From a virus (taxonomy: Duplodnaviria > Caudoviricetes): a DNA stretch of 58,174 bases. Positions within the stretch are counted from its first letter, which is position 1, and each line of letters starts with the position of its first letter. The DNA lies in IMG/VR virus record IMGVR_UViG_3300032309_000708, positions 1 to 58,174 of that record. One strand, written 5' to 3'. The notes under the pieces were generated by a model that worked only from the letters and a program-made list of their open reading frames with translations, was not told where the DNA came from and did not search any database. This document shows positions 15,489-52,364 of this stretch, piece by piece. A program made the translations under genes and the position numbers.

Positions 15489-15682
15489 TGGACAGAACTT
15501 TAGAGATTATCAAGCACCAGATAAACGAGAAACAAGCACAAGTAGCACATGCTATGAGTGAAGGTGCGGCGAAAGATTACGCGGAATACCGCGGAATGTG
15601 CGGTGAAATTAGAGGTCTTTCCATCGCAGAAGGATACATACTTGACCTTGCAAACCAAATGGAGCGAAACAACGATGAGTGA
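15488..15682 (+). CDS. small protein downstream of portal
   Basis: DYAEYRGMCGEIRGL motif, TAATG coupling. Confidence 0.75.
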   Translation: MDRTLEIIKHQINEKQAQVAHAMSEGAAKDYAEYRGMCGEIRGLSIAEGYILDLANQMERNNDE

Positions 15683-16079
15683 AAACTTAATCATTGCGAC
15701 AGAACACGGTGAAATATCCGAGTTACCGCAAACTACGGAAGAAAAGGGTAAACAGTTGCCAGAACCAGTGGGATACCACATTTTGGTAGCACTTCCAGAA
15801 GCCGAAGAGAAGTTTGAAAGCGGCATTATTAAATCAGACGAAACACGTAGGTTTGAAGAAGTCTTAGCTACTGTATTTTTTGTAGTCAAGATTGGCCCAG
15901 ATGCTTATAAAGATGTTAATAAGTTCCCTACAGGTCCTTGGTGCAAAGAAGGCGACTTCGTTCTTGCAAGACCAAATAGCGGTACACGATTGAAAATACA
16001 CGGACGCGAGTTCCGACTTTTAAACGACGACACCATTGAGGCTGTCGTACAAGATCCACGTGGCATTAGCCGCGCATAA
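15675..16079 (+). CDS. groES: GroES-like co-chaperonin
   Basis: PVGYHILV, GII, VVKIGP, KEGDFV, GTRLKIHGREFRLLNDDTIEAVV; start moved to ATG 15675. Confidence 0.85.
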   Translation: MSENLIIATEHGEISELPQTTEEKGKQLPEPVGYHILVALPEAEEKFESGIIKSDETRRFEEVLATVFFVVKIGPDAYKDVNKFPTGPWCKEGDFVLARPNSGTRLKIHGREFRLLNDDTIEAVVQDPRGISRA

Positions 16080-18179: not shown

Positions 18180-19094
18180 ATGGCTATTTCACGCGCACAA
18201 CTATTGAAAGAGCTGCTCCCCGGCCTAAACGCATTGTTTGGTATGGAGTATGCTACTTACGGTGAACAACACAAAGAGATCTACGAAACAGAGACCTCTG
18301 AGCGTTCGTTCGAAGAAGAAACAAAGCTTTCCGGCTTCTCAGCTGCTCCTGTTAAAAACGAGGGCAGTGCTATTGCTTATGACAATGCACAAGAAGCATG
18401 GACAGCTCGATATAACCACGAAACAATTGCTTTGGGCTTCAGCTTAACTGAAGAAGCAATCGAAGATAACTTGTATGACTCGTTATCAGCTCGTTATACC
18501 AAAGCTTTGGCTCGTGCTATGGCATACACCAAGCAAGTTAAAGCTGCTTCTGTACTAAACAACGGCTTCACTAACTCCGCGCAATACTACGGTGGTGATA
18601 ATGTGCCTTTGTTCAGCGCATCGCATCCTTTGATCTCTGGTGGCACTAACAGCAACATCCCATCAACTCCCGCTGACTTGAACGAAACTTCGTTGGAAAA
18701 CGCTGTTATTCAGATCGCTGCATGGACTGATGAACGTAGTCTGTTAATCGCTGCTAAACCTAAGAAATTGATTGTTCCACCTGCTCTGCAGTTCGTTGCT
18801 ACTCGTTTGTTAGAAACCAGCCTCCGTGTTGGCACTACTGATAACGATATCAATGCTATCAAGAACAATGGCTCAATCCCAGAAGGCTACACTGTCAACA
18901 ACTTCTTGACAGATACAAATGCTTGGTTCTTAACAACCGACGTACCTAACGGTATGAAGCACTTTGTACGTACGCCTTTAAGCAACTCAATGGACGGCGA
19001 CTTTGATACTGGTAACGTACGTTACAAGTCTCGTGAGCGTTATTCATTCGGTTGGTCTGATCCACTCGGTATGTACGGTTCACAAGGCGCTTAA
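18180..19094 (+). CDS. major capsid protein
   Basis: MAISRAQLLKELLPGLNALFG, RYNHETIALGF and RERYSFGWSD motifs; strong RBS; followed by a terminator. Confidence 0.9.
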   Translation: MAISRAQLLKELLPGLNALFGMEYATYGEQHKEIYETETSERSFEEETKLSGFSAAPVKNEGSAIAYDNAQEAWTARYNHETIALGFSLTEEAIEDNLYDSLSARYTKALARAMAYTKQVKAASVLNNGFTNSAQYYGGDNVPLFSASHPLISGGTNSNIPSTPADLNETSLENAVIQIAAWTDERSLLIAAKPKKLIVPPALQFVATRLLETSLRVGTTDNDINAIKNNGSIPEGYTVNNFLTDTNAWFLTTDVPNGMKHFVRTPLSNSMDGDFDTGNVRYKSRERYSFGWSDPLGMYGSQGA

Positions 19095-19109
19095 TAGCGT
19101 TTTAGTGAG

Positions 19110-19131
19110 AGGGGGCTTCGGCCCCCTTTTT
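19110..19131 (+). terminator. intrinsic terminator after MCP
   Basis: GGGGGC-TTCG-GCCCCC-TTTTT. Confidence 0.9.
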
Positions 19132-19147: not shown

Positions 19148-19351
19148 ATGAATATTTTTATACAAAAACAGATTGAGTCGTCAGAACGCCTTTACAAAAT
19201 GATGTTCCAAGACCATGTGGATCGCGTCAAAAACGTTACTAATGTATATGAAGTAAGTGAAAGCTTACAAAAAAAGCTGGACCAACGTGATGCTGAAATA
19301 GCAAAATTACGCCGCCAACTACGTGCTTACGAGGTTATAGAGCGCATGTAG
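19148..19351 (+). CDS. small coiled-coil protein
   Basis: GAGGT RBS, 67 aa. Confidence 0.65.
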   Translation: MNIFIQKQIESSERLYKMMFQDHVDRVKNVTNVYEVSESLQKKLDQRDAEIAKLRRQLRAYEVIERM

Positions 19352-19391
19352 CTTGTTTTACGGTTGTAATATTTATGGCATAGTATTAGAT

Positions 19392-19416
19392 GGCAGCCAG
19401 GGGTGGTTGCCTTTTT
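19392..19416 (+). terminator. terminator-like hairpin
   Basis: GGCAGCC-AGGGGT-GGTTGCC-TTTTT. Confidence 0.5.
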
Positions 19417-19431
19417 GCTATGGAGAACACT

Positions 19432-19662
19432 ATGCACGTAACTATTATTTTTGAATGCGAATACGAAGAACTATTTGACGACGTTGAGTACGAAGAGTAC
19501 GAAGATGATGAAGACGGCGTTGAGTACGATGAAGATGGCGTAGCTTGGTGGTTTGATGAGGAGTCAGAAGTTTGGTACTTCTACGACGAAGATGCTGATG
19601 ACTGGTTCGAGTGGGATGAAGAAGCAGAGTATTATGAGTTTGAAGAAGTAGCAGCTGCGTAA
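19432..19662 (+). CDS. extremely acidic, aromatic-rich small protein
   Basis: 76 aa from GGAG-preceded ATG 19432; 35 D/E, no K/R. Confidence 0.65.
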   Translation: MHVTIIFECEYEELFDDVEYEEYEDDEDGVEYDEDGVAWWFDEESEVWYFYDEDADDWFEWDEEAEYYEFEEVAAA

Positions 19663-20030
19663 TTTAAGGAGGCTTCGGCCTCCTTTTTCTTTTTCTTTGC
19701 TTGGTATTCCGCATCATGTAATTTTCTGTGGCAGTTTGCGCATAGTACAATACAACGTTCTTCTATTTCCTTTAATGCACCTTTGTAATTACCGTTTGTA
19801 AGTAATTTGTTAACTTTTTTATTATCTTTTGCTCTTACAACATGGTGAAAATCAAATGTAGCGGGGTGGTTTTCTCCACACTGTACACACGATAAAGTTG
19901 CTTTATAGTCACGCCATTTTTGTCTGTATTTTTCCTTACCAATTTTTGTTGTGGCTTTAATTTTAGCGGCATGTTTAGCGTAATGCCGTTTAGCTATTTC
20001 TTTCTTTTTTTCTTTATCTTTGACTGGCAT
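19632..20030 (-). CDS. HNH endonuclease
   Basis: CVQC..HPATFDFHH and C.VLCANCHRKLH; antisense to the late operon. Confidence 0.85.
   Translation of the reverse strand: MPVKDKEKKKEIAKRHYAKHAAKIKATTKIGKEKYRQKWRDYKATLSCVQCGENHPATFDFHHVVRAKDNKKVNKLLTNGNYKGALKEIEERCIVLCANCHRKLHDAEYQAKKKKKEAEASLNYAAATSSNS
19666..19689 (+). terminator. intrinsic terminator
   Basis: AAGGAGGC-TTCG-GCCTCC followed by T-tract. Confidence 0.85.
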
Positions 20031-20063
20031 ATAAGCCTTTGAACGCTAGTTAATTAAAAGCGC

Positions 20064-20091
20064 TTGCATTTTATTATAACTCTGGTATAAC
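20064..20091 (+). promoter_or_regulatory. sigma70-like promoter
   Basis: TTGCAT-16-TATAAC with extended -10 TG. Confidence 0.65.
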
Positions 20092-20100
20092 AACAACATT

Positions 20101-20170
20101 CCGGGATTTCCGGTATATCTGAACAGCCCCGGCTGACGACATGCAGACAGATATGCCTAACTTGCATGTA
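20101..20170 (+). ncRNA. candidate structured 5' leader RNA (double pseudoknot)
   Basis: three interleaved helices: 20101-05/20128-32, 20112-21/20148-57, 20139-46/20162-69; ends at the SD of the next gene. Confidence 0.65.
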
Positions 20171-20183
20171 AGGAAAATTTACT

Positions 20184-20615
20184 ATGGCACTCTCAACCGC
20201 ATCCGGTCCTTGGCGTTCGCTCACGGGCTATATCGTCCCAATTACTTATGTTTTCGCAACCGACATCGTTGGTGGCGAGTACCAGATTTTAGACGCTGGT
20301 GCACGTATCCTAGTTTTATCTCCTGCTGATGGCGGTCCAGCATCTGCAGTTGATTTTGTTCTTCCTAATGTAACTTTGCCTACTGGAGTCACTGCGTTTA
20401 CTGGCCCACAATCCGCTCAACCACAATTCAATGGTATCGAAGGCTCAATTACTAACTATGGCGCAGTTACCCATAAGTTAAAAGGTTATGGCGCACAAGT
20501 TGTTTCTGGTGCTGCTGAAGTAACCGTAGCTGCTGGCACTATTGTTCAGTGGGCCGGTAATGGCAACCCAAATGCTCCTTGGATCGCTATCTCTACCGCT
20601 ATTCTGGCTGCTTAA
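20184..20615 (+). CDS. putative virion protein
   Basis: MALSTASGP N-terminus, beta-rich, AAGGA RBS. Confidence 0.65.
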   Translation: MALSTASGPWRSLTGYIVPITYVFATDIVGGEYQILDAGARILVLSPADGGPASAVDFVLPNVTLPTGVTAFTGPQSAQPQFNGIEGSITNYGAVTHKLKGYGAQVVSGAAEVTVAAGTIVQWAGNGNPNAPWIAISTAILAA

Positions 20616-20651
20616 TTAATCTCAAGGAATTCCCTATAAAGGAGATTAATC

Positions 20652-20942
20652 ATGATGCAAACAGACGTAAAAGCCGTTACTACAGGCGGAACACAGACAA
20701 ACCAAGCACTTATTTCCGGTCGTACTCGGATTAAATCTGTAGTCATTACTGGCGGCGCAGGTGCGGGTAAAGCTAGGTTTCTGAACGCTTCAGGCGGCAA
20801 TATCCTGTTAGAACTAGATACTGGGTCTAACTCCAACATGACTAACGTAATCCTGCCGGGCGAGGGTATTTTGTTCCCGAACGGTGTTTGGTACACGTCA
20901 GTTTCTGTAGCCCCTCTTGGTATTACGGTGTGTTATGGCTAA
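20652..20942 (+). CDS. small beta-rich putative virion protein
   Basis: MQTDVK, R.RIKS and LPGEGILF..GV motifs. Confidence 0.7.
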   Translation: MMQTDVKAVTTGGTQTNQALISGRTRIKSVVITGGAGAGKARFLNASGGNILLELDTGSNSNMTNVILPGEGILFPNGVWYTSVSVAPLGITVCYG

Positions 20943-41907: not shown

Positions 41908-43350
41908 ATGTCAATCAATTACGGCCCAATAAACGAGATTAAAGATTTAGCGTTTAAATACTCTAAGCCACAACTTGGACGTATGGCGCAGCTTGGGTTG
42001 ATCGATACCCAAAAAGCTGTATTAGCAGCTATGATGAGAGAACGTGTTGCTAAACAAGATGCACAACCGCCGACCGCAACAGTAGCGCAAGATGCACTTG
42101 GCTTACAACCTCCACCACAACAACAAGCTCAACCGCAGCCGCAACAAATGGGCATGCAGCAAGGGCAACCTCAACAGGCTCAGCCACAACCACAACTAGC
42201 TCAAGCCCCTGCTGGCATAGAGTCTTTACCTGCCGGTAATGTTGGCAACTACGCTGGTGGTGGCATTGTTGCGTTTGATGAAGGTGGTGAGGTACCGGGT
42301 TACGCTCGTGGTGGGTTTCCTACTATGCCAAGTACAAATATTCAGTTAGGTCAACTTAAAGGCCCACAGGAAAAAACAATTGAAGAAATAATTGCTGAAC
42401 AACAAGGCGTATACGAGCAACAAGGCTTAGTAAACCCGTATGAAGGGTTAATGCAACAGCAAGAAGCTAAGCGTGGTGAACTCGATACACGTAGAGAACA
42501 AGCTAAAGGTGAGTTCTTAATGAATCTTGGCACCGGTTTAATGCAGGCTCAAAAAGGTAGAGAGTTAGCAGCTTTAGGTACAGGTGCGCTTAAAGGCATG
42601 GCAGACTACAAAGATGCTATGAAAGATTTACGTGCATCTGAAGAAAAACTTGACGATAGAATCGGCGCATTTAAGTTGGCTGATTATCAGGCTAAGAAAA
42701 CCGGCACAGATGCTGCTATTGCTAGACGTGACTCGCTTCGTGATAAAGTTATAGAAACCGAAAATAAAAATATCGAAGCTCAAAATGCTGTTGCAGTTGA
42801 AGGCAAGAAACTTGAGATGCAAGGGTTTAATACCGCAATGGGTTATAAAGGCACTGTCGATGCCGCAAGTATACGCAACGCAGCTATGCCTGACTTATAT
42901 AAGATGGCAAATTCACCCGACATGTTAAAATCTATGCCTAACTCTACGTTTGCTCAACGACTAGAAGCAGTAGGTAAATACGCGCATCCTAAAGATTCGT
43001 ATAACGCATTAACATCACGTTTTAACTTATTAAATAAAACCATTGCTGAGACTAACTATCCATTAAGTATATCGTACAACTTGGCAAAGACAGATGCGGA
43101 GAGAAAAGAAATTTTAGATAAGATGAATGCAAATGCTACTAGAATTAGAACAGAGCAGCAGTGGACCGCGTCTGATAATGCTAGACTGCAACGCGAACAA
43201 GCTCAATTAGATGGTACAACACAAACACAAGGTCAAGCTTTACCACTGCCCCCTACCGAAGCAGAACTTCAAAAAGGGCAGCTATATACTACTGCAAGAG
43301 GCCCAGCTATTTGGAATGGAACAGCGTTTGTAGCAGCACCTGCAAGATAA
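41908..43350 (+). CDS. putative ejection protein
   Basis: Q/P linker, YAGGGIVAF motif, coiled coil. Confidence 0.65.
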   Translation: MSINYGPINEIKDLAFKYSKPQLGRMAQLGLIDTQKAVLAAMMRERVAKQDAQPPTATVAQDALGLQPPPQQQAQPQPQQMGMQQGQPQQAQPQPQLAQAPAGIESLPAGNVGNYAGGGIVAFDEGGEVPGYARGGFPTMPSTNIQLGQLKGPQEKTIEEIIAEQQGVYEQQGLVNPYEGLMQQQEAKRGELDTRREQAKGEFLMNLGTGLMQAQKGRELAALGTGALKGMADYKDAMKDLRASEEKLDDRIGAFKLADYQAKKTGTDAAIARRDSLRDKVIETENKNIEAQNAVAVEGKKLEMQGFNTAMGYKGTVDAASIRNAAMPDLYKMANSPDMLKSMPNSTFAQRLEAVGKYAHPKDSYNALTSRFNLLNKTIAETNYPLSISYNLAKTDAERKEILDKMNANATRIRTEQQWTASDNARLQREQAQLDGTTQTQGQALPLPPTEAELQKGQLYTTARGPAIWNGTAFVAAPAR

Positions 43351-46300
43351 TGGCAAATACATTTTCGTTTGAAGACGCTTTAAAACCAGCGCCACAACAA
43401 GGGCCTACTACGTTTTCGTTTGAAGATGCGTTTAAGCCCGCCGTAACTTCTGGGCCGAATCCACTAGACCCACAACAACCTGCGCCAGTACAAGCAGCTC
43501 AACCTGCGCCTACACCTACACCTGTTGCTAAAGAAGAACCCGGCCTTTTAAATGATATATCTAAAGGCTTTCAACGTATACCAGCTAGCTTAGCTGAACA
43601 ATACGAAGGGATATTTACACGTAAAACTGCGCAGATGGCCAAGGGCAATCAAGTCCAAACTGCGTTGTATAACATGATTGATGCTGGTCAAATTAAATCC
43701 GACAGCGATCTTAATAAAGCTTATTTAAAATTACTGTATGGTAAAGAGCAACTATCTCCAAAAGAAATACTAGCGCATGGTAATTTAAAACAAAGTTTGG
43801 CAGCCGCAGATGCGTATGAGTATATGAACTCGTCACCAGAGCATCGTGCTGCTATGAGAAAAGGCGTTGAAACTGCAGCGTCTCAATCTTTAACTAGGTT
43901 TGAAGAATCACGAGCACGTAGTAAAGAACGTGAAGCAGAACTAGAAAAGCTTGCCCCAAGAGTTAGACAGTTTACTGATATTGGTAGTCCGTATGAAGCG
44001 GCTAGTTGGGCGGCTGGTAGATTGCCTGAGTTTGTCGGTACAAACCTTCCACAGATAGCTGCGGGTTATTTTACTGGTCCCGGCGGTCTTGCCCTTACTA
44101 GCGTAATACCAGAACTTTCAGGTGGAACTAAAGAACGTGTTAAGTACATGGAAGGTATTGTTAAAGACGAACCTGATCCAGCTAAACGCAGTCAAGCTTT
44201 AATTGATTACATAAATAAAACGCAAGATGTTACGTTGCAGGCGGCTGTGCTTAATGGTCTAACGGACATGATTATTGGTCCTGAAGCCGAAGCAGTTAAG
44301 CTTGGTGTACAAAGCGCATTTAAAGAAGAGGTACGCAAAGAAATTCTTAAGAAGCTACCAAAAGTTGTAGGTGGTGAAGCTTTAGGTGAAGGCGCTACTG
44401 GCGGCATCCAAGAAATTACCAATATGGTAGCGGAAAGATCTTTGGGTGAGATGCAAGGTGGCGTATTTACTGCTGAGAATGCTAAACGTATTATCAACTC
44501 AATGGCTGATGAAGCACTTGGGGGCGCAGGTGTATCTACTGGAATGCAACTAACTAAAGCCGCGTTAGCTAAGAAAAACTTAGCCGACACAGATACGCCT
44601 GAAGGCAGGGCAATGCGTGGCCTTGATGATTTAGTTAATCGAGAAGAAGCCGGAACAACAGAAGATATGACCGTTCCGCCTGCCCCACCTGCTCCACCCA
44701 CAGCACCACAACGTGCAATACCTACCGAACCACTATTTACGTTTGATACCCCTGAACAGGCGCAAGAGCGTACTAACCTATTAAAAGTTAACCGCCCTAA
44801 AGAAAACTTTGCGGTTCAAGAAACAGAAGATGGCAAATTCGGCGTATATCAAATACCAGTCGGAGAAACAGGAGGTACAAATGTTACCCCACCTGCAGTA
44901 AATAAAAAAGAAGTAGAACAAATAGCTAGAGGTGGGTGGTTTGAGTTATCCGATGCAGAGCGTTTAGAACTGCAGGGGGATTTACAGTTTCTTAAAGATT
45001 CAGGAAGAACTATAACCATAAATAGTATACCCGAAGAAATTCGAGCAAAACTAAGCCATTCTGCATTAATAAATTTAAAATCCGCGTTAAACCAAGATAT
45101 CAATGCAACTATAGCTGCGCTAACGCCGTCTAGCAAAAAAGAAACAGCCACAGGAGGTGAAGATGTTACCCCACCTATCACAGACGCAGATGGAGCTGGC
45201 ACTGAAAATATTGGCGAACCCCCACAAGGTACCGGTGCCGGAATCCCTCCATCATCTGAGGGAACAGGACTGGGTGTTTCTGATACAGATGTTACGGGAG
45301 CTGGAGTATCAGAAGGAATTCAGCCTCATACACTAACCAGAAAGCAATTCCAAGAAGCTAATACAGACCTTCAAACGTTTAATAATTTATTTTCGCCAAA
45401 CTTTGAACTTACAGACAACTTAGATACGTTATTAACTAGCGGCACTGAAAGCGATCTTCACGTTGCAAGCAAAATATTTGGGCTTAAACCTGTTATAGGT
45501 AAAAAACGCGCTGCGGAAAATATTTCAGCGACTATTAAAAAAATGAAATTGGCAGAGGGTTTAGATCCCGCACAAGTGGCGGGGATGAAGTTGCCTGAGC
45601 TAAAAGAATTAGCCAACGAACTTGGAATATCTACATACGGAAATAAAGATGTACTTATATCAAAAATTAATAACTTCTACCCTAATTTAGAAAGTAAAGT
45701 TGAAGAAAATTTAAAAAATTATGCCCACGAAACCGCTGTTCGTAGTGCTGTAGTAAATGGAAAACCTGTAAGTGATGAGGTACTAAAAGACTATCCGGAG
45801 ATTGCTGCGTACGCAACCCCATTGGGATCAGGGGCATATACTCAAGCTATAAAAACGTTGTCAAGGAAAATGCTACCGCAACATCTAATGGACGTGCCAT
45901 CTACTGCGCGACACCTTAGAGAAGATGCAGAGCAATCAGGTGATGGAAGACAAGCTGCCGTGCTAAGGGACATTGCCGATGCAATGGAAGAGTATTACAA
46001 AAACGCTTTTGGTATAAAAGAAGAAGCACCTGCAGCTGAAGAAACTGTACCTACAGAAGAAGAAGTAACCGCGCTTAACGACACTATTGAAAAAGGTATA
46101 AAGGATAAACTTGAAGGTTTATTAGTCGGCGATGAAGTTAGATTTGGTAACACCCCCGGCGTTGTTGTCGGCTTAGAAGGTGATTATGCTAAGTTTCATT
46201 CCGCTAGTTCATCTAATCCTAAAGCGTACACACGCGTACTAAAAAAACAATTAACTTTTGTATCGCGTCCTAATACAAATTTTACATCTGCGTCTTCAAA

Positions 46301-49300
46301 AGAACCTACAAAATTTGGCGAAGAATCGGGGATGCTTGACGTAAACAAAGCTAGGCTTACTAAGACGCTTGGCGCAAATATGTATAAGGAAAACCTTGCC
46401 GACGTTGCAGTTAAAGAGATGCTGCAAAATTCTTTTGACTCTGTAAAAGCTAATGTTTTCTTTGGAAATATTAAAGAAGGCAAAATAGATATTAAATTTG
46501 ATTCAGGTAAGCGAACTATAACTATTACAGATAACGGGGAAGGCATGACGCCTGAAATCGTTAGAAAAGCTTTCTTTACTATCGGTGGGTCACACAAAGC
46601 TGGTGTACCTATGGAACTGCAAAGTGGCGGTTTTGGTATGGCAAAGCTTGGCTTTATTATGGGGTCCGAAAGTATACAGTTAAATACTGTTAAAGATGGC
46701 GTGCGCACTAAAGTTGATGCTACTTCTGAAGATATAGGCAGTGACAACTTTAAGATACAAAAAAGCCCTGCTCCAGCAAATGAGCATGGCACTACTATAA
46801 CAGTAAAAATACCTGAAACCTATACCGATGCCCGCAGTGGTGATGAAAAATCAGTTTATTTTCCTTATGGCTTATATGGTGTAAGTGCATTAAATCGTCC
46901 ATTAATAGGGCCAGTAGAAGTAAATGTAGATTTTGATGGGGATAAGAAGACCCTTCCTATTGGGGTTAACTTTGATTTTGAAGCTACGCCAAAACTAACT
47001 ACAGTTAAGTTCCCTTGGGGTACAGCAGATGTGTATTTTGGTGTAGAGCGCAAGCCAGAAAGATACGAACCAAAACATAGAGTTTTAAGTAGCGGTGTAT
47101 ATCAGTTTGATTATAATAAATTTAATTTAGGGCAAAATGAACCAATACCATACGACATCATAGTAGATGTTAAATCTGCTGTGGAAGCTACAGATAGAGA
47201 ATATCCGTTTGAAAAAAATAGAGGAAGTTTTAATGAAGTAATTATAGAAGATATAGCATCATTAGCGCAGTATCTTGCAAAAGTAGCTAGAGGCCACGAA
47301 GCAGAAGGATTGCAAGAAACATTTAAAGATATTGTAACTATGCCTCGTACAGAGGTGGGTACAGAAACGGCTGAAGCATCTGCAAAACTTAGAAAAGTTT
47401 TTGACCAGCGTGGCGCAGACAAGGGTACGTACGAGTTACCACCAATGCCTAAAGAAATTATAATATCAGGCGGTACAGTTACAGATAACAAAGGTGCTGT
47501 GCTAGTAGAAAAAGAAAAAACAGAAGATAGAAAACGTGAGTCTGGGTTTGAAGCGGATAAAGCTGCGCCTGAAATGTCCCAGTTCTTAGTGGATATGAAG
47601 CAGGACCCACGACAGCCAATATTTCATAGTAATGTAAATACAGACTTATTAGAAATTGGTCGTAAATATGGTAACCCAGAACAGTTCTTTGCCGAGTTAG
47701 GTACTCTAGTAGTAGAGATGAAAGAGGAACTATCTAAGAGTGGTATATGGACATACGACCAGTTATCTCCAGAAAATCTATTTTTTGCCGGTGTATCCAT
47801 AGATAAAGGCTACGGCGGTGTGTTTATAAGAGTGCCATTTAAAGGTATTTTACTTAACCCGTTCTATGACTGGGGTGCAAAAACTTTATTCGGCGTTCGT
47901 CAAAACTTTTTAAACACAATGATTCATGAGATTGCACACCAAACAAGTGGTGAGCATGATCGCTCTCATGAAAATGCCATGCTAAAGATAGAACAGTATT
48001 TAGCAGATACTGGCACATTAGATTATTTTAGAGACGCTATACTAGATATTCTAGTAAAGCATGAGTCAACTTTTACCGCAATGCGGGAGGCGTATGGAAG
48101 ATCAACAACAAAGAACGTTGCAAAGTCTCTTGAGGATTACGGGAAATCTCCCACCTCAGCAGAAATTGGAAGAGATGAGGGCCGCCGCACAGACACGTCT
48201 GGTAAATTATCAGAACGAGGGGAACCAGTACGGAGTAGCGACTTACGTACCGATAGTGGCGAAACTGGAAAAAGCGAAGTCGGTAGAGGAGGCCCTAAGT
48301 TTTCTGTAAGCAACGAAGAGAAGATTATTAACCAAGGCATGGTTGGGGGTGACTTACACCCAACAGTAGTAGACGCTATTGCTAATAACGACCTTAACGG
48401 TGCGCTAAAACTAGTAGCTGATCGTTTATCTAGTATTGGGTTTAAAACCAAATCGGGTTACTTTTTAGGGCAGCTTGCAAATAGACTAGCAGATTTAAAC
48501 TTGCCTACAGGTATACGTATTGGCGACCAACGTAATTTAACGCGTAGGTCTATTGATTTATCCACTGCCCCTGCACAGATACAACTGTTTAATTTTATAC
48601 GTGTGGCTATGCCAGATGTGTATAACAAGTATTTCCAAGGTTACGATAAAGCTGAAAACCTTGAACAAGTGTATGCCGGTCTAAAGCATATTCAAAACAA
48701 TCCAAAGTTAAAGTCAGTGTTGCCACAGTACGAATCAATATTGCGGTCGTTTGACAACAACATGGTTGCTTTAAAAGCTCTTGGTGTTTACTACCCAAGA
48801 TTCGATGAAATAAATTTAAACGATAAACTCAAAGACGGGCTTTCGTATCAAACGTTTTTACATGAAGTAGTACACGCTGCTACAGAAATACTTTTGCAAA
48901 CGCCAGCAAATGAGCGTACCGCTGAACAAAATGAAGCTATTGCAGAGTTAGAGAAACTATTTAATGCAGCAAAAGCTAATTCGAATGTTGCCCATTATGG
49001 GTTTACAGATTTATCAGAATTTATAGCAGAGGTGTTTACAAACCCGGTATTTATAAAAGACTTAAAGGGTATACCATATCCACCTGCACGTACAAATATA
49101 TTTAATAGGTTTGTAAAGATAATAATGGATTTGATTGGTATGGACAACGTTGCTGGCCGTGCAATGATAGAGGCCCAAAAGTTGTTTAATGCTGACCGTC
49201 CAAACATACCAATGTCGGCGGGTCCTAGATTTGCAACAAGGCAACGTGGACCTATTAGTTCTAAATGGCGAATTGTAGAAGATACCATGAAGAGCGTTAA

Positions 49301-52300
49301 GAATTGGGAAGTTATTAAGAACGACTTAGTTCCTGCAATGTGGGACGCTACTAATGGTGTGTTCCGTAGCGCTATGCTTGGTGTTATGAACTTACGTCAG
49401 ATTGCTGACGTTACTAAAACTAAGTTCCCGCAGATTGACGCTGCTATTCGTACGATTGAAAAGATGCTTGCTTATCGTGGCAAGATTATGAACGACGGCG
49501 GTGAAATTGTTCAACGTTGGACTAAGGCTCAAGCTAAGAACTTAAAAGGTTCGCAGTTGCTAGGTCGTGTTATGTTAGAAGCTACTATTCGTGGGGTAGA
49601 AGTTGACCCACAAAGTAGTCAATATAATCCACTTAATTTTGTAGTAAATAAAGAATTAGTGGACGCTTGGGACGCATTAGGTCCAGACTTCCAACAGATA
49701 TACAGGGATGTACGGGATTTCTATAAACGTGCCGTAGAAGAAACAGTACGCCTAATGAAAGAACGTGCTAACAGTGTAACTGACCCTGTAGAGCGCCAAG
49801 AACTTTTAGACAGGATTGATGCACAGTTTGGCCCTGATAAATTAAAAGGTCCGTACTTCCCGTTGCGTCGTTTCGGTGAGTTCTGGTTCCAAGTGGGTGA
49901 AGGTAACTTTAAAGAATTCTATATGTACGAAAACCGTATAACTAGAACTATAGCTATGCGTGTTAGAAAGCGTGAATTATCCAAAGGTAATGCGCGACAA
50001 CGTGCGCTAGCAGAAACAATAAGTAAGGGTAACGGCGTGTCTACGTTGTACAGTCAGAACGTGGGTACTACTAAAATACTACAAGACGTACAAGATATAG
50101 TTGATAGTATAGGTAATAGCGTGGTTGATACAGCTACAGGCTTACCTAGAGATAAAACTCAAGATGAGTTAAAGGGCGAGATCAGAGATAGCTTAAACCA
50201 GCTTATCTACATACTGCTACCACAACAGAGCATGCGTAAGATGTTTATTAACCGCAAAGCAATTCAAGGCGCAAGCGGCGATATGTTACGTGTGTTTGCT
50301 ACACATGCGGTTCACAGTGCTTACCAACGTTCACGCTTTAAATATGCTCAAGACTTTATGGATAACTTATCCAATGCGCAAAATTGGATTGCTTCGTTTG
50401 CAAAAGGTGATAAGGCTGAAGTTTATCGTGATTATGTAAATGAAGTAGAAAAACGTTCTAAAACAATTTTAGGTACTGAAGATACTAGTTTGGCTGCAAG
50501 AGCTGCGGGTAAGGCTTCTGAGGCAGTGTTCTACTTTATGTTGTCTGCACCGTTTACTGCTATGTTAAACCTAGTGGGCTTTGCTCAAATAGCTATGCCG
50601 TACATTGGTGGTAGATATGGCTACGCAAAAACTAATGCCCGTATATTAGAAAACATGGGTAAGTATTTGCAGACAGTACCGAAGCGTACATTCTCACCTT
50701 TAGTAAACGGTGCTGTAATGGATATGTCTTTCCCTTCTATAGTAGAAGGTGGTAACTTAACTGGCATATTAAAAGACGCGGCACAACAGCTTTTAGACGA
50801 AGAGCAAATTAATATTTCTTTAACTAATGATGTTTTAAATGTTGGTTCAGGCCCAACAGCGGCATATACTGGCACATACAACGCTGTTAAACGTGGTATA
50901 TCCGCTTTGTTCCATCAATCAGAACGTCTGAACCGTGAGATTACATTACTGTCGGTTGTGGAACTTGCATATGAAAAGCTCATGTCCGAGCCTATCAAAG
51001 ATGTTAAAGGTATTGTTAAACGTGACGCACAGGGTCAACCTATGCGTTATACCGACAATGCTACAACCTCTGATGGTACAACTCAGTATTCACAAGAAGC
51101 TTTAGAGTTAGCTATTAACGAAGCTAAAGATATTGCGGGCTTATCGCTTGGTGACTTTACTCGCCAAATGAAACCTAGATTTTTTACGCCACCAATATTA
51201 AGTGTATTAACTAAGTTTAAACAGTATGCAGTTTTAGCTTCTTATGCAGTTATTCGCAATGCACATTTAGGATTACTCAAACCGTTTTCGAAAGCAGAGT
51301 TAAATGAGTTGCGTGGTGTACTAGAAGAGCATTACAAAACTGCTGTAGATAAAGATAAGATAATTGAACAGCAAATGGCTGAAGCGCAAACGCGCCAAAA
51401 AGAAATTGCTAAAGAAGCGCGTCGTAGGCTAGCAGGTATATTAGGTATGACGTATTTGTTTGGTGGCTATGTTGCCTTGCCGTTTTTTAGCACGGTTACA
51501 CCTATACTGGTTGGCATGTTGGCGGGTGACGAAGACGATGAGGACGACTTCTTTGACTGGGAAAATTGGTTTAAGAATTATATGGAAACCGAATTTGGTG
51601 GTTATGTCGGCGCTATGTTACAGAAGTTCGGTGTTGACCAAGAAAAAGCAAATAAGGTAGGTAAAAAAGTTAGTGAGACCCTTGTATATGGTCCAGCTTC
51701 TACAGTTACTGGCGGTGCTTTATCTGATCGTGTTAGCTTAGACTTAAAAAATCTATGGTACAGAGATGGTCGTTATTCACCTGACACCCGTGAAAGTATT
51801 GTAGAAAGCATGATTGCTAACGCAGGTCCTGTGGTTGGTTTAACTGTAAACGCAGCAGACGCATGGGATATGATACAAGAGGGTAAAGTTGGCCGTGCGT
51901 TTGAGAGAATGGCTCCAGCTCTATTTGCTAAACCAGTAACCGCAGCTCGTTTAGCTACTGAAGGCGCTAAAACAAAAGGTGGTGACGTTCTTGTAGATGA
52001 ACTTACAACTACAGAAATAGCATTGCAAGCAATTGGTCTACAACCTTTACGTGTAGCAAAAGCACAAAAAGCTTCAATTGAAACAGTAGAAAAAGTGCAG
52101 AAGATTCAGGACCAGTACAGCTCCTTAATGAATAGGTTATGGATGGAGCGTAACAACCCACAAGAATTTAATGACGCACTTGAAAAACTAAACGAGTTTG
52201 CTATGAAACATCCGGGGTATAAAATAAACGGCAGGACTATAAAAGAGTCGTTTAAGAAACGTGCTGAAGATGCAGCGTTGGCAGATGTGTTTGGTGCTCG

Positions 52301-52364
52301 TATACCTAAGCCGTTACAAAGCGACCCTACAGTTACGAACATGCCAAACTACGGTAAGGATTAA
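43350..52364 (+). CDS. giant polyvalent ejection protein (3004 aa): SAP-like motif, GHKL ATPase, two HExxH metallopeptidase domains
   Basis: TAATG-coupled start; LPELKELA..LGI..GNK..LI; EMLQNSFD, DNGEGM, GGFG and HGT GHKL boxes; HEIAH; HEVVH...EFIAE. Confidence 0.85.
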   Translation: MANTFSFEDALKPAPQQGPTTFSFEDAFKPAVTSGPNPLDPQQPAPVQAAQPAPTPTPVAKEEPGLLNDISKGFQRIPASLAEQYEGIFTRKTAQMAKGNQVQTALYNMIDAGQIKSDSDLNKAYLKLLYGKEQLSPKEILAHGNLKQSLAAADAYEYMNSSPEHRAAMRKGVETAASQSLTRFEESRARSKEREAELEKLAPRVRQFTDIGSPYEAASWAAGRLPEFVGTNLPQIAAGYFTGPGGLALTSVIPELSGGTKERVKYMEGIVKDEPDPAKRSQALIDYINKTQDVTLQAAVLNGLTDMIIGPEAEAVKLGVQSAFKEEVRKEILKKLPKVVGGEALGEGATGGIQEITNMVAERSLGEMQGGVFTAENAKRIINSMADEALGGAGVSTGMQLTKAALAKKNLADTDTPEGRAMRGLDDLVNREEAGTTEDMTVPPAPPAPPTAPQRAIPTEPLFTFDTPEQAQERTNLLKVNRPKENFAVQETEDGKFGVYQIPVGETGGTNVTPPAVNKKEVEQIARGGWFELSDAERLELQGDLQFLKDSGRTITINSIPEEIRAKLSHSALINLKSALNQDINATIAALTPSSKKETATGGEDVTPPITDADGAGTENIGEPPQGTGAGIPPSSEGTGLGVSDTDVTGAGVSEGIQPHTLTRKQFQEANTDLQTFNNLFSPNFELTDNLDTLLTSGTESDLHVASKIFGLKPVIGKKRAAENISATIKKMKLAEGLDPAQVAGMKLPELKELANELGISTYGNKDVLISKINNFYPNLESKVEENLKNYAHETAVRSAVVNGKPVSDEVLKDYPEIAAYATPLGSGAYTQAIKTLSRKMLPQHLMDVPSTARHLREDAEQSGDGRQAAVLRDIADAMEEYYKNAFGIKEEAPAAEETVPTEEEVTALNDTIEKGIKDKLEGLLVGDEVRFGNTPGVVVGLEGDYAKFHSASSSNPKAYTRVLKKQLTFVSRPNTNFTSASSKEPTKFGEESGMLDVNKARLTKTLGANMYKENLADVAVKEMLQNSFDSVKANVFFGNIKEGKIDIKFDSGKRTITITDNGEGMTPEIVRKAFFTIGGSHKAGVPMELQSGGFGMAKLGFIMGSESIQLNTVKDGVRTKVDATSEDIGSDNFKIQKSPAPANEHGTTITVKIPETYTDARSGDEKSVYFPYGLYGVSALNRPLIGPVEVNVDFDGDKKTLPIGVNFDFEATPKLTTVKFPWGTADVYFGVERKPERYEPKHRVLSSGVYQFDYNKFNLGQNEPIPYDIIVDVKSAVEATDREYPFEKNRGSFNEVIIEDIASLAQYLAKVARGHEAEGLQETFKDIVTMPRTEVGTETAEASAKLRKVFDQRGADKGTYELPPMPKEIIISGGTVTDNKGAVLVEKEKTEDRKRESGFEADKAAPEMSQFLVDMKQDPRQPIFHSNVNTDLLEIGRKYGNPEQFFAELGTLVVEMKEELSKSGIWTYDQLSPENLFFAGVSIDKGYGGVFIRVPFKGILLNPFYDWGAKTLFGVRQNFLNTMIHEIAHQTSGEHDRSHENAMLKIEQYLADTGTLDYFRDAILDILVKHESTFTAMREAYGRSTTKNVAKSLEDYGKSPTSAEIGRDEGRRTDTSGKLSERGEPVRSSDLRTDSGETGKSEVGRGGPKFSVSNEEKIINQGMVGGDLHPTVVDAIANNDLNGALKLVADRLSSIGFKTKSGYFLGQLANRLADLNLPTGIRIGDQRNLTRRSIDLSTAPAQIQLFNFIRVAMPDVYNKYFQGYDKAENLEQVYAGLKHIQNNPKLKSVLPQYESILRSFDNNMVALKALGVYYPRFDEINLNDKLKDGLSYQTFLHEVVHAATEILLQTPANERTAEQNEAIAELEKLFNAAKANSNVAHYGFTDLSEFIAEVFTNPVFIKDLKGIPYPPARTNIFNRFVKIIMDLIGMDNVAGRAMIEAQKLFNADRPNIPMSAGPRFATRQRGPISSKWRIVEDTMKSVKNWEVIKNDLVPAMWDATNGVFRSAMLGVMNLRQIADVTKTKFPQIDAAIRTIEKMLAYRGKIMNDGGEIVQRWTKAQAKNLKGSQLLGRVMLEATIRGVEVDPQSSQYNPLNFVVNKELVDAWDALGPDFQQIYRDVRDFYKRAVEETVRLMKERANSVTDPVERQELLDRIDAQFGPDKLKGPYFPLRRFGEFWFQVGEGNFKEFYMYENRITRTIAMRVRKRELSKGNARQRALAETISKGNGVSTLYSQNVGTTKILQDVQDIVDSIGNSVVDTATGLPRDKTQDELKGEIRDSLNQLIYILLPQQSMRKMFINRKAIQGASGDMLRVFATHAVHSAYQRSRFKYAQDFMDNLSNAQNWIASFAKGDKAEVYRDYVNEVEKRSKTILGTEDTSLAARAAGKASEAVFYFMLSAPFTAMLNLVGFAQIAMPYIGGRYGYAKTNARILENMGKYLQTVPKRTFSPLVNGAVMDMSFPSIVEGGNLTGILKDAAQQLLDEEQINISLTNDVLNVGSGPTAAYTGTYNAVKRGISALFHQSERLNREITLLSVVELAYEKLMSEPIKDVKGIVKRDAQGQPMRYTDNATTSDGTTQYSQEALELAINEAKDIAGLSLGDFTRQMKPRFFTPPILSVLTKFKQYAVLASYAVIRNAHLGLLKPFSKAELNELRGVLEEHYKTAVDKDKIIEQQMAEAQTRQKEIAKEARRRLAGILGMTYLFGGYVALPFFSTVTPILVGMLAGDEDDEDDFFDWENWFKNYMETEFGGYVGAMLQKFGVDQEKANKVGKKVSETLVYGPASTVTGGALSDRVSLDLKNLWYRDGRYSPDTRESIVESMIANAGPVVGLTVNAADAWDMIQEGKVGRAFERMAPALFAKPVTAARLATEGAKTKGGDVLVDELTTTEIALQAIGLQPLRVAKAQKASIETVEKVQKIQDQYSSLMNRLWMERNNPQEFNDALEKLNEFAMKHPGYKINGRTIKESFKKRAEDAALADVFGARIPKPLQSDPTVTNMPNYGKD
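45163..45336 (+). CDS. nested +1-frame gene A inside the giant ORF (57 aa)
   Basis: AGGAGGT-4nt-ATG; MLPHLSQTQMELALKILANPHKVPVPESLHHLREQDWVFLIQMLRELEYQKEFSLIH; host frame is a G/T/E/P low-complexity linker. Confidence 0.7.
   Translation: MLPHLSQTQMELALKILANPHKVPVPESLHHLREQDWVFLIQMLRELEYQKEFSLIH
48094..48309 (+). CDS. nested +1-frame gene B inside the giant ORF (71 aa)
   Basis: GGGAGG-3nt-ATG; amphipathic helical MEDQQQRTLQSLLRI...AKSVEEALSFL; host frame is a G/R/S/E linker. Confidence 0.6.
   Translation: MEDQQQRTLQSLLRITGNLPPQQKLEEMRAAAQTRLVNYQNEGNQYGVATYVPIVAKLEKAKSVEEALSFL

Follow-up and report, generated by a model that had tools for sequence, protein, structure and literature searches.

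What kind of RNA stands between the capsid gene of a tailed phage and the next gene of its virion block, and what could it do there? The question is raised by the IMG/VR virus record IMGVR_UViG_3300032309_000708 (Duplodnaviria; Caudoviricetes), a stretch of 58,174 bases, estimated to be 92% complete, which was analysed at its full length and is called the window below. Directly upstream of a gene for a likely capsid-accessory protein that starts at 20184 on the plus strand lies a roughly 70-nt leader, and comparison with homologous leaders gives strong support for a double-pseudoknot RNA that is recognised by no Rfam family. An original prediction, made from the letters of the window alone, had read this leader as three interleaved helices abutting a Shine-Dalgarno sequence (SD), and had offered for it either riboswitch-like or protein-binding control of translation or the part of a small RNA in assembly.

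Architecture of the leader element

The leader element is taken here as window positions 20101-20169 on the plus strand, and it is built from three helices (H1, H2 and H3) and a small hairpin (Hp). Its parts are as follows, protein-anchored leaders being those homologous leaders that were found through the downstream protein.

20101-20105 (+): H1 5′ strand, CCGGG; partner CCCGG at 20128-20132, inside the Hp loop
20110-20113 (+): 3′ arm, CCGG, of an alternative 5′ hairpin; overlaps the first two bases of H2
20112-20121 (+): H2 5′ strand, GGUAUAUCUG (= GGTATATCTG); partner CAGATATGCC at 20148-20157
20124-20135 (+): Hp, 3 bp, CAG at 20124-20126 with CUG at 20133-20135
20136-20138 (+): junction ACG, from Hp to H3; ACG in 25/31 and AUG in 4/31 protein-anchored leaders
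20139-20146 (+): H3 5′ strand, ACAUGCAG (= ACATGCAG); partner TTGCATGT at 20162-20169
20147 (+): lone unpaired A, from the H3 5′ strand to the H2 3′ strand; the local G-A-C is the majority form
20148-20157 (+): H2 3′ strand, CAGAUAUGCC (= CAGATATGCC); H2 has 10 bp including one U.G
20158-20161 (+): linker L3, UAAC; L3 is 3-6 nt long in 77/88 leaders, and UAAC is its commonest form (21/88)
20162-20169 (+): H3 3′ strand, UUGCAUGU (= TTGCATGT); abuts the SD; H3 has 8 bp including one G.U
20170-20186 (+): SD AAGGA at 20170-20174, spacer, and start codon ATG at 20184-20186, as read in the sequence

All three interleaved helices were found in the window sequence where the original prediction had placed them, and the last of them does end at the AAGGA of the 20184 gene, since H3 closes at the nucleotide before it. 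Hp is a fourth helix that had been overlooked. Its loop consists of one C followed by the CCCGG that forms the 3′ strand of H1 and that continues directly into the 3′ strand of Hp, and H1 is therefore a pairing of the 5′ end with a hairpin loop. H2 encloses a three-way core, of which Hp and H3 are the other arms, and the parts of this core are joined through lone A's and the ACG. The pairs of H1 cross those of H2, and the pairs of H2 cross those of H3, which together make a double pseudoknot. One copy is present in the window: a covariance model of H2 and Hp (R1) matched positions 20093-20186 with 75.6 bits (E 2.7e-19), and the runner-up in the window scored 14.7 bits.

Folding of the window sequence by itself gave nothing unusual, with a nested minimum free energy of -20.4 kcal/mol (z = -0.80) and 43 of 200 shuffled sequences as stable. 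The knot is a real conserved RNA fold, and it is the comparison of leaders, rather than single-sequence thermodynamics, that shows it to be so.

Comparative evidence for the fold

Homologous leaders came from two sources. Set P was gathered through the downstream protein only, blind to the RNA, in scans of viral contigs and metagenome contigs, and comprises 31 distinct leaders. Set D was gathered with a degenerate 18-mer over Hp and its flanks that matched at least 120 viral stretches, 80 of which were examined; an open reading frame (ORF) starting M-x-x-T-T-F-S-G-P follows 69 of these 80 matches. Because set D was chosen by Hp and its flanks it is no independent evidence on those parts, but it does add variation in H1, H2 and H3.

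All 31 leaders of set P share a single order of elements: in the 5′ half the H1 5′ strand, a linker of variable length (mostly 5-9 nt), the H2 5′ strand, an A and Hp, and in the 3′ half ACG, the H3 5′ strand, an A, the H2 3′ strand, a linker of 3-6 nt, the H3 3′ strand and the SD. About 60 leaders of set D have this architecture too, and both sets hold many compensatory changes. When the set P leaders were threaded onto the structure with a register-searching script, canonical pairs were present in 31/31 at nearly all helix positions, with 2-6 pair types at each. The five positions of H1 are canonical in every set P leader, with 2-4 pair types each, as are the three pairs of Hp, the middle one of which occurs in 5 types, and positions 1-5 of H3 (3-4 pair types); positions 5-9 of H2 are canonical in 30-31 of the 31, with 4-5 pair types.

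The threading script searches small ranges of register, and for that reason pairs were also counted independently by alignment column. In a structure-blind MAFFT alignment of the 31 sequences (A4), trimmed to 2 nt 5′ of H1, 76.5% of cells were paired compared with 60.4% after shuffling, and the covariation score was 0.459 compared with 0.194; none of 500 shuffles came up to either value, and the score with partners slid by 1-3 columns was at most 0.152. By helix, H1 had 87% and Hp 88% of its cells paired, and H1, H2 and Hp together lay in the range of 87-88%. RNAalifold predicted H2 from this alignment unaided, as 9 pairs, each with compensatory changes.

A second count used a covariance model of H1 and H3 (R2), so that H2 and Hp stood outside the model. 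It was applied to 100 sources, namely the 31 of set P, 68 of the 80 pattern loci and Pelagibacter phage HTVC023P, and matched 91 of them; the nine misses were pattern loci lacking the ORF and were taken as chance. In the resulting alignment of 90 distinct rows (A6), 84.7% of cells were paired (67.8% when shuffled) with a covariation score of 0.429 (0.161 when shuffled), and again none of 500 shuffles reached either value. Paired cells here amounted to 97% in H1, 91.9% in H2 and 97.3% in Hp, and those of H2 lie between 87 and 92% across alignments A4, A3 and A6. The R1 model, for its part, was run on 42 protein-anchored sources: 41 of them had a single copy, which stood directly before the gene, and the remaining one has no gene start. 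Six of the 41 were metagenome loci that had played no part in building the model.

H3 stands somewhat apart. Only 52-63% of its cells are paired in all the column-based counts, from MAFFT and covariance-model alignments alike, which is attributed to variation in the length of L3 and to a large subgroup that lies one column out of register. Since the column counts are low, the case for H3 is carried by the register-searching script and its shuffle control: at least 6 contiguous base pairs were found in 75 of 88 leaders, compared with 7% of shuffled downstream regions. The leaders hold 31 distinct combinations of H3 strands, which are mostly complementary (for example CAUACA/UGUAUG, ACAUGC/GCAUGU, UUAUAG/CUAUAA, AUGCAC/GUGCAU and GCUUAG/CUAAGU). 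A partner-swap control discriminated weakly for this helix (7.0 compared with 5.7 of 8), probably because many leaders share their H3 sequences. The script failed to parse two set D leaders, L075 and L125, both of which R2 matched, and mis-threaded a few others on a wrong ATG.

Covariation among homologous leaders, the comparison on which the original prediction had itself proposed to stand or fall, was thus found, and it exceeds 500 shuffles and all slid controls. A chance arrangement is excluded by the same shuffles and slid controls. Cells with G.U pairs outnumber those with A.C by 154 to 32, from which it follows that the structure is selected on the plus strand, that is, in the sense of the mRNA; this excess and the compensatory changes speak for RNA and against an element that acts at the level of DNA.

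The helices vary, whereas the junction nucleotides (the A, the ACG, the second A and the G-C closing pairs) are near-invariant, set P included. There is reason to see in this pattern the mark of a factor-responsive translational operator, in which a phage protein or a small molecule would stabilise the knot, and the stabilised knot would occlude the ribosome-binding site at the boundary of H3 and the SD or trap the 30S subunit. Such an operator is, in our judgement, hardly less probable than the constitutive role preferred below, though well short of an even chance: near-invariant junctions and closing pairs between variable helices are in its favour, yet few unpaired nucleotides are conserved when compared with most riboswitch aptamers, and neither a ligand nor a binding protein is indicated by any result.

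An alternative 5′ hairpin

The original prediction had also described a hairpin at the 5′ end that competes with the first helices. In the window it pairs CCGG at 20101-20104 with CCGG at 20110-20113, and it arises from a short repeat: a segment just 5′ of H2, overlapping the first bases of H2, repeats the 3′ strand of H1 and so pairs with the 5′ strand of H1. An alternative hairpin of at least 4 bp can be formed in 56 of 84 leaders; with H1 strands swapped among leaders, 200 permutations averaged 32 and never exceeded 40. The repeat covaries with H1 (CCGGG/CCGG, CUGGG/CCAG, CCAGG/CCUGG) and is absent from clades in which H1 is CUAGG, UAGGG or GGAAG. The competing hairpin is therefore present, conserved and covarying in a subset of the leaders, which makes it a selected but non-universal second state, either a folding intermediate or the arm of a switch.

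Were the leader an operator, this hairpin could be the other state of the switch, and its presence in 56 of 84 leaders as a covarying structure mutually exclusive with the knot counts for that reading. A parallel exists in the rpsO leader of Escherichia coli, the target of ribosomal protein S15, where a pseudoknot is in equilibrium with hairpins in a manner that resembles the alternative 5′ hairpin of the window leader.

Putative promoter, 5′ end and Shine-Dalgarno boundary

The 5′ edge of the element is marked by a candidate promoter.

20064-20091 (+): putative sigma-70-type promoter; -35 box TTGCAT at 20064-20069, 16-nt spacer, TG at 20083-20084, -10 box TATAAC at 20086-20091

A promoter at 20064 belonged to the original prediction. 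A consensus scan does not list it, which is explained by the missing final T of TATAAC, but the homologues carry canonical boxes at the same distance: in most of 83 homologous leaders a TTGCAA-like -35 box is followed by a TAnnAT -10 box that ends 7-9 nt 5′ of H1. Given this spacing, the transcript is predicted to begin 0-2 nt before the first paired base. A look-up of RNA sequencing runs for 19700-20700 listed none, which counts neither for nor against this start.

At the other end, counted from the first base 3′ of H3, the start of the SD core lies no more than 1 nt upstream or 3 nt downstream in 73 of 88 leaders. In every case the element is contiguous with the SD and the start codon, with no terminator between. 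Both the 5′ and the 3′ boundary are fixed, and the fold fills the whole untranslated region of a capsid-block mRNA. The proximity of the 3′-most strand to the SD, which it touches or overlaps across the family, is a further point for the operator, against which it must be said that the SD itself is unpaired in most leaders. With a constraint that mimics the knot, the six nucleotides after H3 have a mean unpaired probability of 0.70, compared with 0.59 without the constraint, and the value is above 0.5 in 62 of 75 leaders.

Relation to known RNA families

Neither the window nor any of 16 homologous loci contains a match above threshold to a family of Rfam 15, and at E<=10 the region 20040-20240 returned only ceN61 and Ysr201, which were taken as noise. 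The original prediction had named the Polynucleobacter-1 motif as a possible match. Polynucleobacter-1 (RF01718) is, like the present element, an environmental candidate cis-regulatory motif, known from freshwater and estuary sequences (PMC2864571), but its model of 141 positions (gathering score 37 bits) has no match in the window at E<=10 and none in the scans of the window and the 16 homologous loci, so that the proposed likeness has to be given up.

The closest relative is Mu-gpT-DE (RF03012; PMC7657543), a bioinformatic candidate of Rfam that is 53 nt long and has a gathering threshold of 49 bits. The likeness begins with position, since both occupy the slot between a Mu-gpT-like major capsid gene and a gene starting MAxTTFSGPV. 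To lie directly downstream of a Mu gpT-like major head gene is a trait of RF03012, and the window element shares it, though in the window an HNH endonuclease gene intervenes. It extends to the core, which in both consists of an outer helix whose 5′ strand ends in G, a lone A, a hairpin, AC(A/G), a segment of 8-9 nt, a lone A and an outer 3′ strand that begins with C. The differences are of structure. The outer helix of RF03012 counts 4 bp, and the CAGG that forms its 3′ strand belongs to the SD (CAGGAG), whereas H2 in the window counts 10 bp and is separated from the SD by 12 nt, with H3 between the two; the 8-9 nt segment is in RF03012 a conserved sequence (UAGCCA) and not the strand of a covarying helix; and the Rfam entry lists neither H1 nor H3, both of which the window class adds. 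Inspection by eye of RF03012-type leaders found nothing consistent by way of H1-like or H3-like pairings.

The models keep the two classes apart. RF03012 gave no match at E<=10 in the window genome and none at E<=1 in the Pelagibacter phages HTVC023P and HTVC027P, both of which carry the window motif, and R1 matched none of 21 RF03012-type loci at E<=1; as a positive control, RF03012 scored 72.3 bits on the leader of Roseobacter phage CRP-902 (L182, 3496-3548), whose gene starts MATSTFSGPI. A pattern drawn from the RF03012 consensus was found in at least 120 viral contigs, and all 73 of 73 distinct copies (loci L190-L269) precede a gene of the TTFSGPV family and stand behind a -10 box. The window element is accordingly a relative of the uncharacterised Mu-gpT-DE, larger than it and new as a structural variant, and the locus after the capsid gene carries at least two distinct leader architectures, that of RF03012 and the knot of the window.

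This comparison also bears on how Mu-gpT-DE itself is understood. Rfam files it as 'Gene; sRNA' and as a 'downstream element', and this filing of a positional relative is the argument for taking the element as a separate small RNA with a function in trans or in assembly, the latter of which the original prediction had allowed. But the RF03012 model ends in an SD and AUG (GGAGAU..ACAUG), and because it contains the SD and start codon and precedes TTFSGPV genes, Mu-gpT-DE is better read as the 5′ leader of a capsid-accessory gene than as a small RNA named for the gene upstream. For the window class the contiguity with SD and ATG noted above, with no terminator, speaks against a free RNA, and nothing was found to support a role of one in assembly. 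Free small RNA, DNA-level element and chance, taken together, are highly improbable. Weinberg et al. 2017 (PMC5737381) make no mention of Mu-gpT-DE in their main text. Literature searches returned no account of the window fold; it may be contained in the catalogue of Fremin et al. 2023 (PMC10690425), which comprises 8,495 candidates for structured RNAs taken from IMG/VR.

Two pseudoknots around a three-way core at the extreme 5′ end, with conserved junction nucleotides, also recall RNAs that resist or cut. It is conceivable that the knot halts a 5′-to-3′ exonuclease in the manner of an exonuclease-resistant RNA (xrRNA), or that it is a new self-cleaving ribozyme which trims read-through transcripts. 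The xrRNAs of flaviviruses are compact folds of about 70 nt with a three-way junction and two pseudoknots at the 5′ end, and to that extent, the pairing of the 5′ end included, they are like the window leader. The partners, however, are swapped: in the xrRNA the junction is the partner of the 5′ end and the loop that of a 3′ strand, whereas in the window the 5′ end pairs with the hairpin loop and a junction strand with the 3′ strand, and no xrRNA of Rfam matched. As to self-cleaving ribozymes, the HDV-like, twister, twister-sister, pistol, hatchet and hammerhead classes are all included in Rfam 15, and none of them matched. A ribozyme of the HDV (hepatitis delta virus) type was ruled out by strand order as well. 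The HDV-like order is P1-P2-P3-P1′-P4-P2′, and in the window the 3′ strand of H1 lies inside the hairpin loop and not after the hairpin. Cleavage would moreover be unnecessary for most copies, which have their own promoter at the 5′ edge. A nuclease-blocking or self-cleaving element is for these reasons improbable.

Pseudoknotted leaders at the ribosome-binding site are familiar from the E. coli rpsO (S15) and alpha-operon (S4) mRNAs and from gene 32 of phage T4. Together with the autoregulation of the scaffolding protein of phage P22, the S15 and S4 pseudoknots are the precedents to which the operator reading can appeal. The T4 gp32 protein binds a 5′ pseudoknot (as cited in PMC10690425). The S15, S4 and gp32 operators differ from the window leader in that their partners are known nucleic-acid-binding proteins, and none of them shows similarity to it in sequence or by model.

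Possible function of the leader

What might such a fold do for the mRNA that carries it? The reading that we favour over a factor-responsive switch, tentatively and short of an even chance, is that of a constitutive element which caps the 5′ end and presents the SD. The leader would act in cis on the mRNA of the capsid accessory. Transcription from the adjacent promoter would start 0-2 nt before H1, so that the 5′ end would be buried in the knot and the mRNA shielded from decay that depends on a free 5′ end. H1, at the extreme 5′ end, pins the loop of Hp, and H3 is closed by a strand from beyond H2 that ends at the SD; a compact fold of this kind would use up the whole untranslated region and leave the SD single-stranded beside the end of a helix. 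An SD exposed in this way would help ribosomes to make, steadily and in large amounts, a protein of which each capsid needs many copies. The alternative 5′ hairpin could on this reading be a co-transcriptional intermediate that guards the 5′ end until H2 and the loop of Hp have been made.

It is well known that a paired 5′ terminus with few unpaired 5′ nucleotides stabilises bacterial mRNAs, the ompA leader being an example. Both the ompA leader and the leaders of phage T7 that are processed by RNase III place 5′-terminal stem-loops on abundant mRNAs with a free SD downstream. These stabilisers are simple hairpins, whereas in the window element a double pseudoknot is conserved and its junction nucleotides are invariant.

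Several observations weigh against this stabilising role. A plain hairpin would be enough for protection, and the elaboration of the knot, with its near-invariant junction nucleotides, hints at a specific partner. The transcription start at the edge of H1 is placed there by promoter spacing only. By eye, and uncounted, a few leaders (for example L035, L039, L050, L096 and L119) show no promoter and follow directly on a terminator-like hairpin, so that in these the knot is not at the primary 5′ end; a knot within a longer transcript would there need to be processed or protected, which is what a nuclease-blocking or self-cleaving element would provide. The gain in SD accessibility reported above is small, and it is reversed in the window sequence itself, where the unpaired probability falls from 0.53 to 0.42. 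The 3′ strand of H3 overlaps the SD in HTVC027P and L029 (CUAGG within CUAGGAG) and in L087 (AAGGAG), and these overlaps, like the outer helix of RF03012 that pairs part of the SD, fit repression better than presentation; the operator finds here, in the CAGG of CAGGAG, an explicit form of its contact with the SD. The alternative hairpin covaries, as would be expected of a functional second state. Finally, with only 3-6 nt of linker to bridge the 9-10 bp of H2, all helices may not form at once.

A broader proposal would gather some of these points. The knot could represent a new class of sensing RNA among phages that rank with the most abundant of oceans and lakes, an operator coupled to assembly or to a metabolite in which the 5′ hairpin and H1 are the two states, or else the phage counterpart of xrRNA, and Mu-gpT-DE would then be its minimal form; we hold this to be a possibility worth stating, though on balance a rather doubtful one. 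If factor sensing or nuclease blocking were true, it would be a new regulatory principle for the late genes of phages. If the element is only a stabiliser, as in the constitutive reading preferred here, it is still a compact natural 5′-untranslated-region module.

Distribution among phages

The element is widespread in aquatic phages, the SAR11 (Pelagibacter) phages of the HTVC023P type included. Among cultured phages R1 matched HTVC023P before gp41 (53.3 bits), DSL-LC04 before a gene annotated as 'cement protein' (42.1 bits) and HTVC027P before gp62 (26.9 bits, E 2e-5); it had no match in Pag-Yong1, CRP-902, 023Pt_psg01, an Alcaligenes phage or Caulobacter phage RW. Compared by the major capsid protein, the relatives in culture are the Synechococcus and Planktothrix phages MinM2, Pag-Yong1 and Pra-JY27 (71%), phage DSL-LC04 (64%), the Pelagibacter phages HTVC023P and HTVC027P (63-64%) and the Roseobacter phages CRP-901 and CRP-902 (56-57%), with Caulobacter phages more distant. 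A blastn search of 19600-20700 against the phage collection returned no match. The named hosts of the cultured records are diverse (Alpha- and Gammaproteobacteria), which argues against an operator that answers to a host-specific factor.

In bacterial and archaeal genomes 79 of the 80 examined matches to the 18-mer were due to chance. The single true copy (L382, 3771-3856; 85.6 bits) lies on a 12-kb contig of a Gammaproteobacteria assembly. This may be a prophage, or phage DNA binned together with its host, and may give a hint of what the host is. In this sample of 80 matches the element looks essentially phage-borne.

In Pag-Yong1 the region before the gene annotated as 'minor capsid protein' (L180, 3404-3507) is GC-rich and, by eye, holds two hairpins; a stretch of it, CCGUCUCC, is likewise seen by eye to be complementary to the SD region, GGAGACGG. 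This intergenic region may be a third leader architecture, one that sequesters the SD.

The downstream gene and its neighbourhood

The genes and other features around the leader are these.

15558-16079 (+): GroES-like co-chaperonin, phrog_3188, upstream of the capsid module
18180-19094 (+): major capsid protein, Mu gpT-like, phrog_371 (E 1.5e-21)
19107-19130, 19392-19411 and 19666-19685 (+): three terminator-like hairpins between the capsid gene and the HNH gene
19632-20030 (-): HNH endonuclease gene between the capsid gene and the leader, phrog_3106 (E 3.1e-17)
20184-20615 (+): P0001, the gene served by the leader, 143 aa; beta-sandwich whose conserved N-terminal arm is disordered, probably a capsid accessory of the cement or spike-like kind
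43311-52364 (+): ORF of 3017 aa; its C-terminal third matches DarB-like antirestriction proteins and large PHROGs of unknown function

That the leader serves a gene of the virion block, as had been proposed at the outset, agrees with these surroundings: the capsid gene lies upstream, with terminase, portal and GroES-like genes further upstream of it, and tail-fibre-like genes follow downstream. The arrangement is shared by relatives. In 51 of the 65 loci that have a same-strand ORF upstream of the leader, that ORF is a homologue of the window capsid protein (38-94% identity), and the records of relatives label the capsid gene 'Mu-like prophage major head subunit gpT'. In many of them the capsid terminator is followed directly by promoter and leader, with no HNH gene between; in 14 of the 65 loci another ORF, of 126-249 aa, stands in the interval. 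The stretch from capsid gene to leader looks like a hotspot for insertions, of homing endonucleases or otherwise.

Neither the 143-aa protein nor any of 14 positional counterparts could be assigned to a Pfam or PHROG family, and sequence searches of the PDB with profile A1 and with the 'cement protein' of DSL-LC04 gave nothing credible. The positional counterparts are annotated 'cement protein' in DSL-LC04 and 'minor capsid protein' in Pag-Yong1, labels that sequence does not confirm: BLASTP of P0001 against the DSL-LC04 protein gave no significant similarity, and the name 'cement protein' is still no more than what the depositors called a positional counterpart. An AF2 model of the window protein is a beta sandwich (pLDDT 76, pTM 0.71) in which residues 1-16 fall below a pLDDT of 50. 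Its best Foldseek match is the N-terminal part of the CBA120 tailspike TSP4 (E 2e-4, TM 0.52), and further matches are to baseplate and tail-fibre proteins and to the capsid spike of Pseudomonas phage Pa223 (E 3e-3).

The products behind the leader, in the window and in loci L059-L138, range from 64 to 293 aa and are mutually unrelated beyond their first ~15 residues, which read TTFSGPVxSxNGF or similar (in the window STASGPWRSLTGY); some of them have repeats of the GNVTGNVTG type. Third codon positions vary freely within the N-terminal stretch, so that conservation there is at the level of the protein. We infer that the product is an accessory attached to the capsid, whose conserved N-terminal arm would dock on the capsid protein while the exposed domain is freely exchanged. 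A hypervariable gene behind a conserved leader and ~15 conserved codons suggests cassette-like exchange of that exposed, capsid-attached domain.

The same arm admits a variant of the operator in which free capsid-accessory protein would bind the leader through its conserved N-terminal arm and so couple translation to assembly by feedback. That leader and first ~15 codons are the only conserved parts of a hypervariable locus, and that residues 1-16 are predicted to be disordered, is in keeping with such feedback. The conserved N-terminus is, however, well enough explained by binding to the highly conserved capsid protein, and the encoded protein has no recognisable RNA-binding domain.

Two small ORFs without a family match (19148-19351 and 19390-19662) lie between capsid gene and leader and are flanked by the three terminator-like hairpins. 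A GroES-like gene is also annotated in HTVC023P, Pag-Yong1, DSL-LC04 and CRP-902. An N4-like phage, which the 3017-aa ORF might lead one to guess, was ruled out, as no family of virion RNA polymerase was found and the capsid points to phages of the HTVC023P, DSL-LC04 and Pag-Yong1 types; the product of this ORF is probably a giant internal or ejected virion protein.

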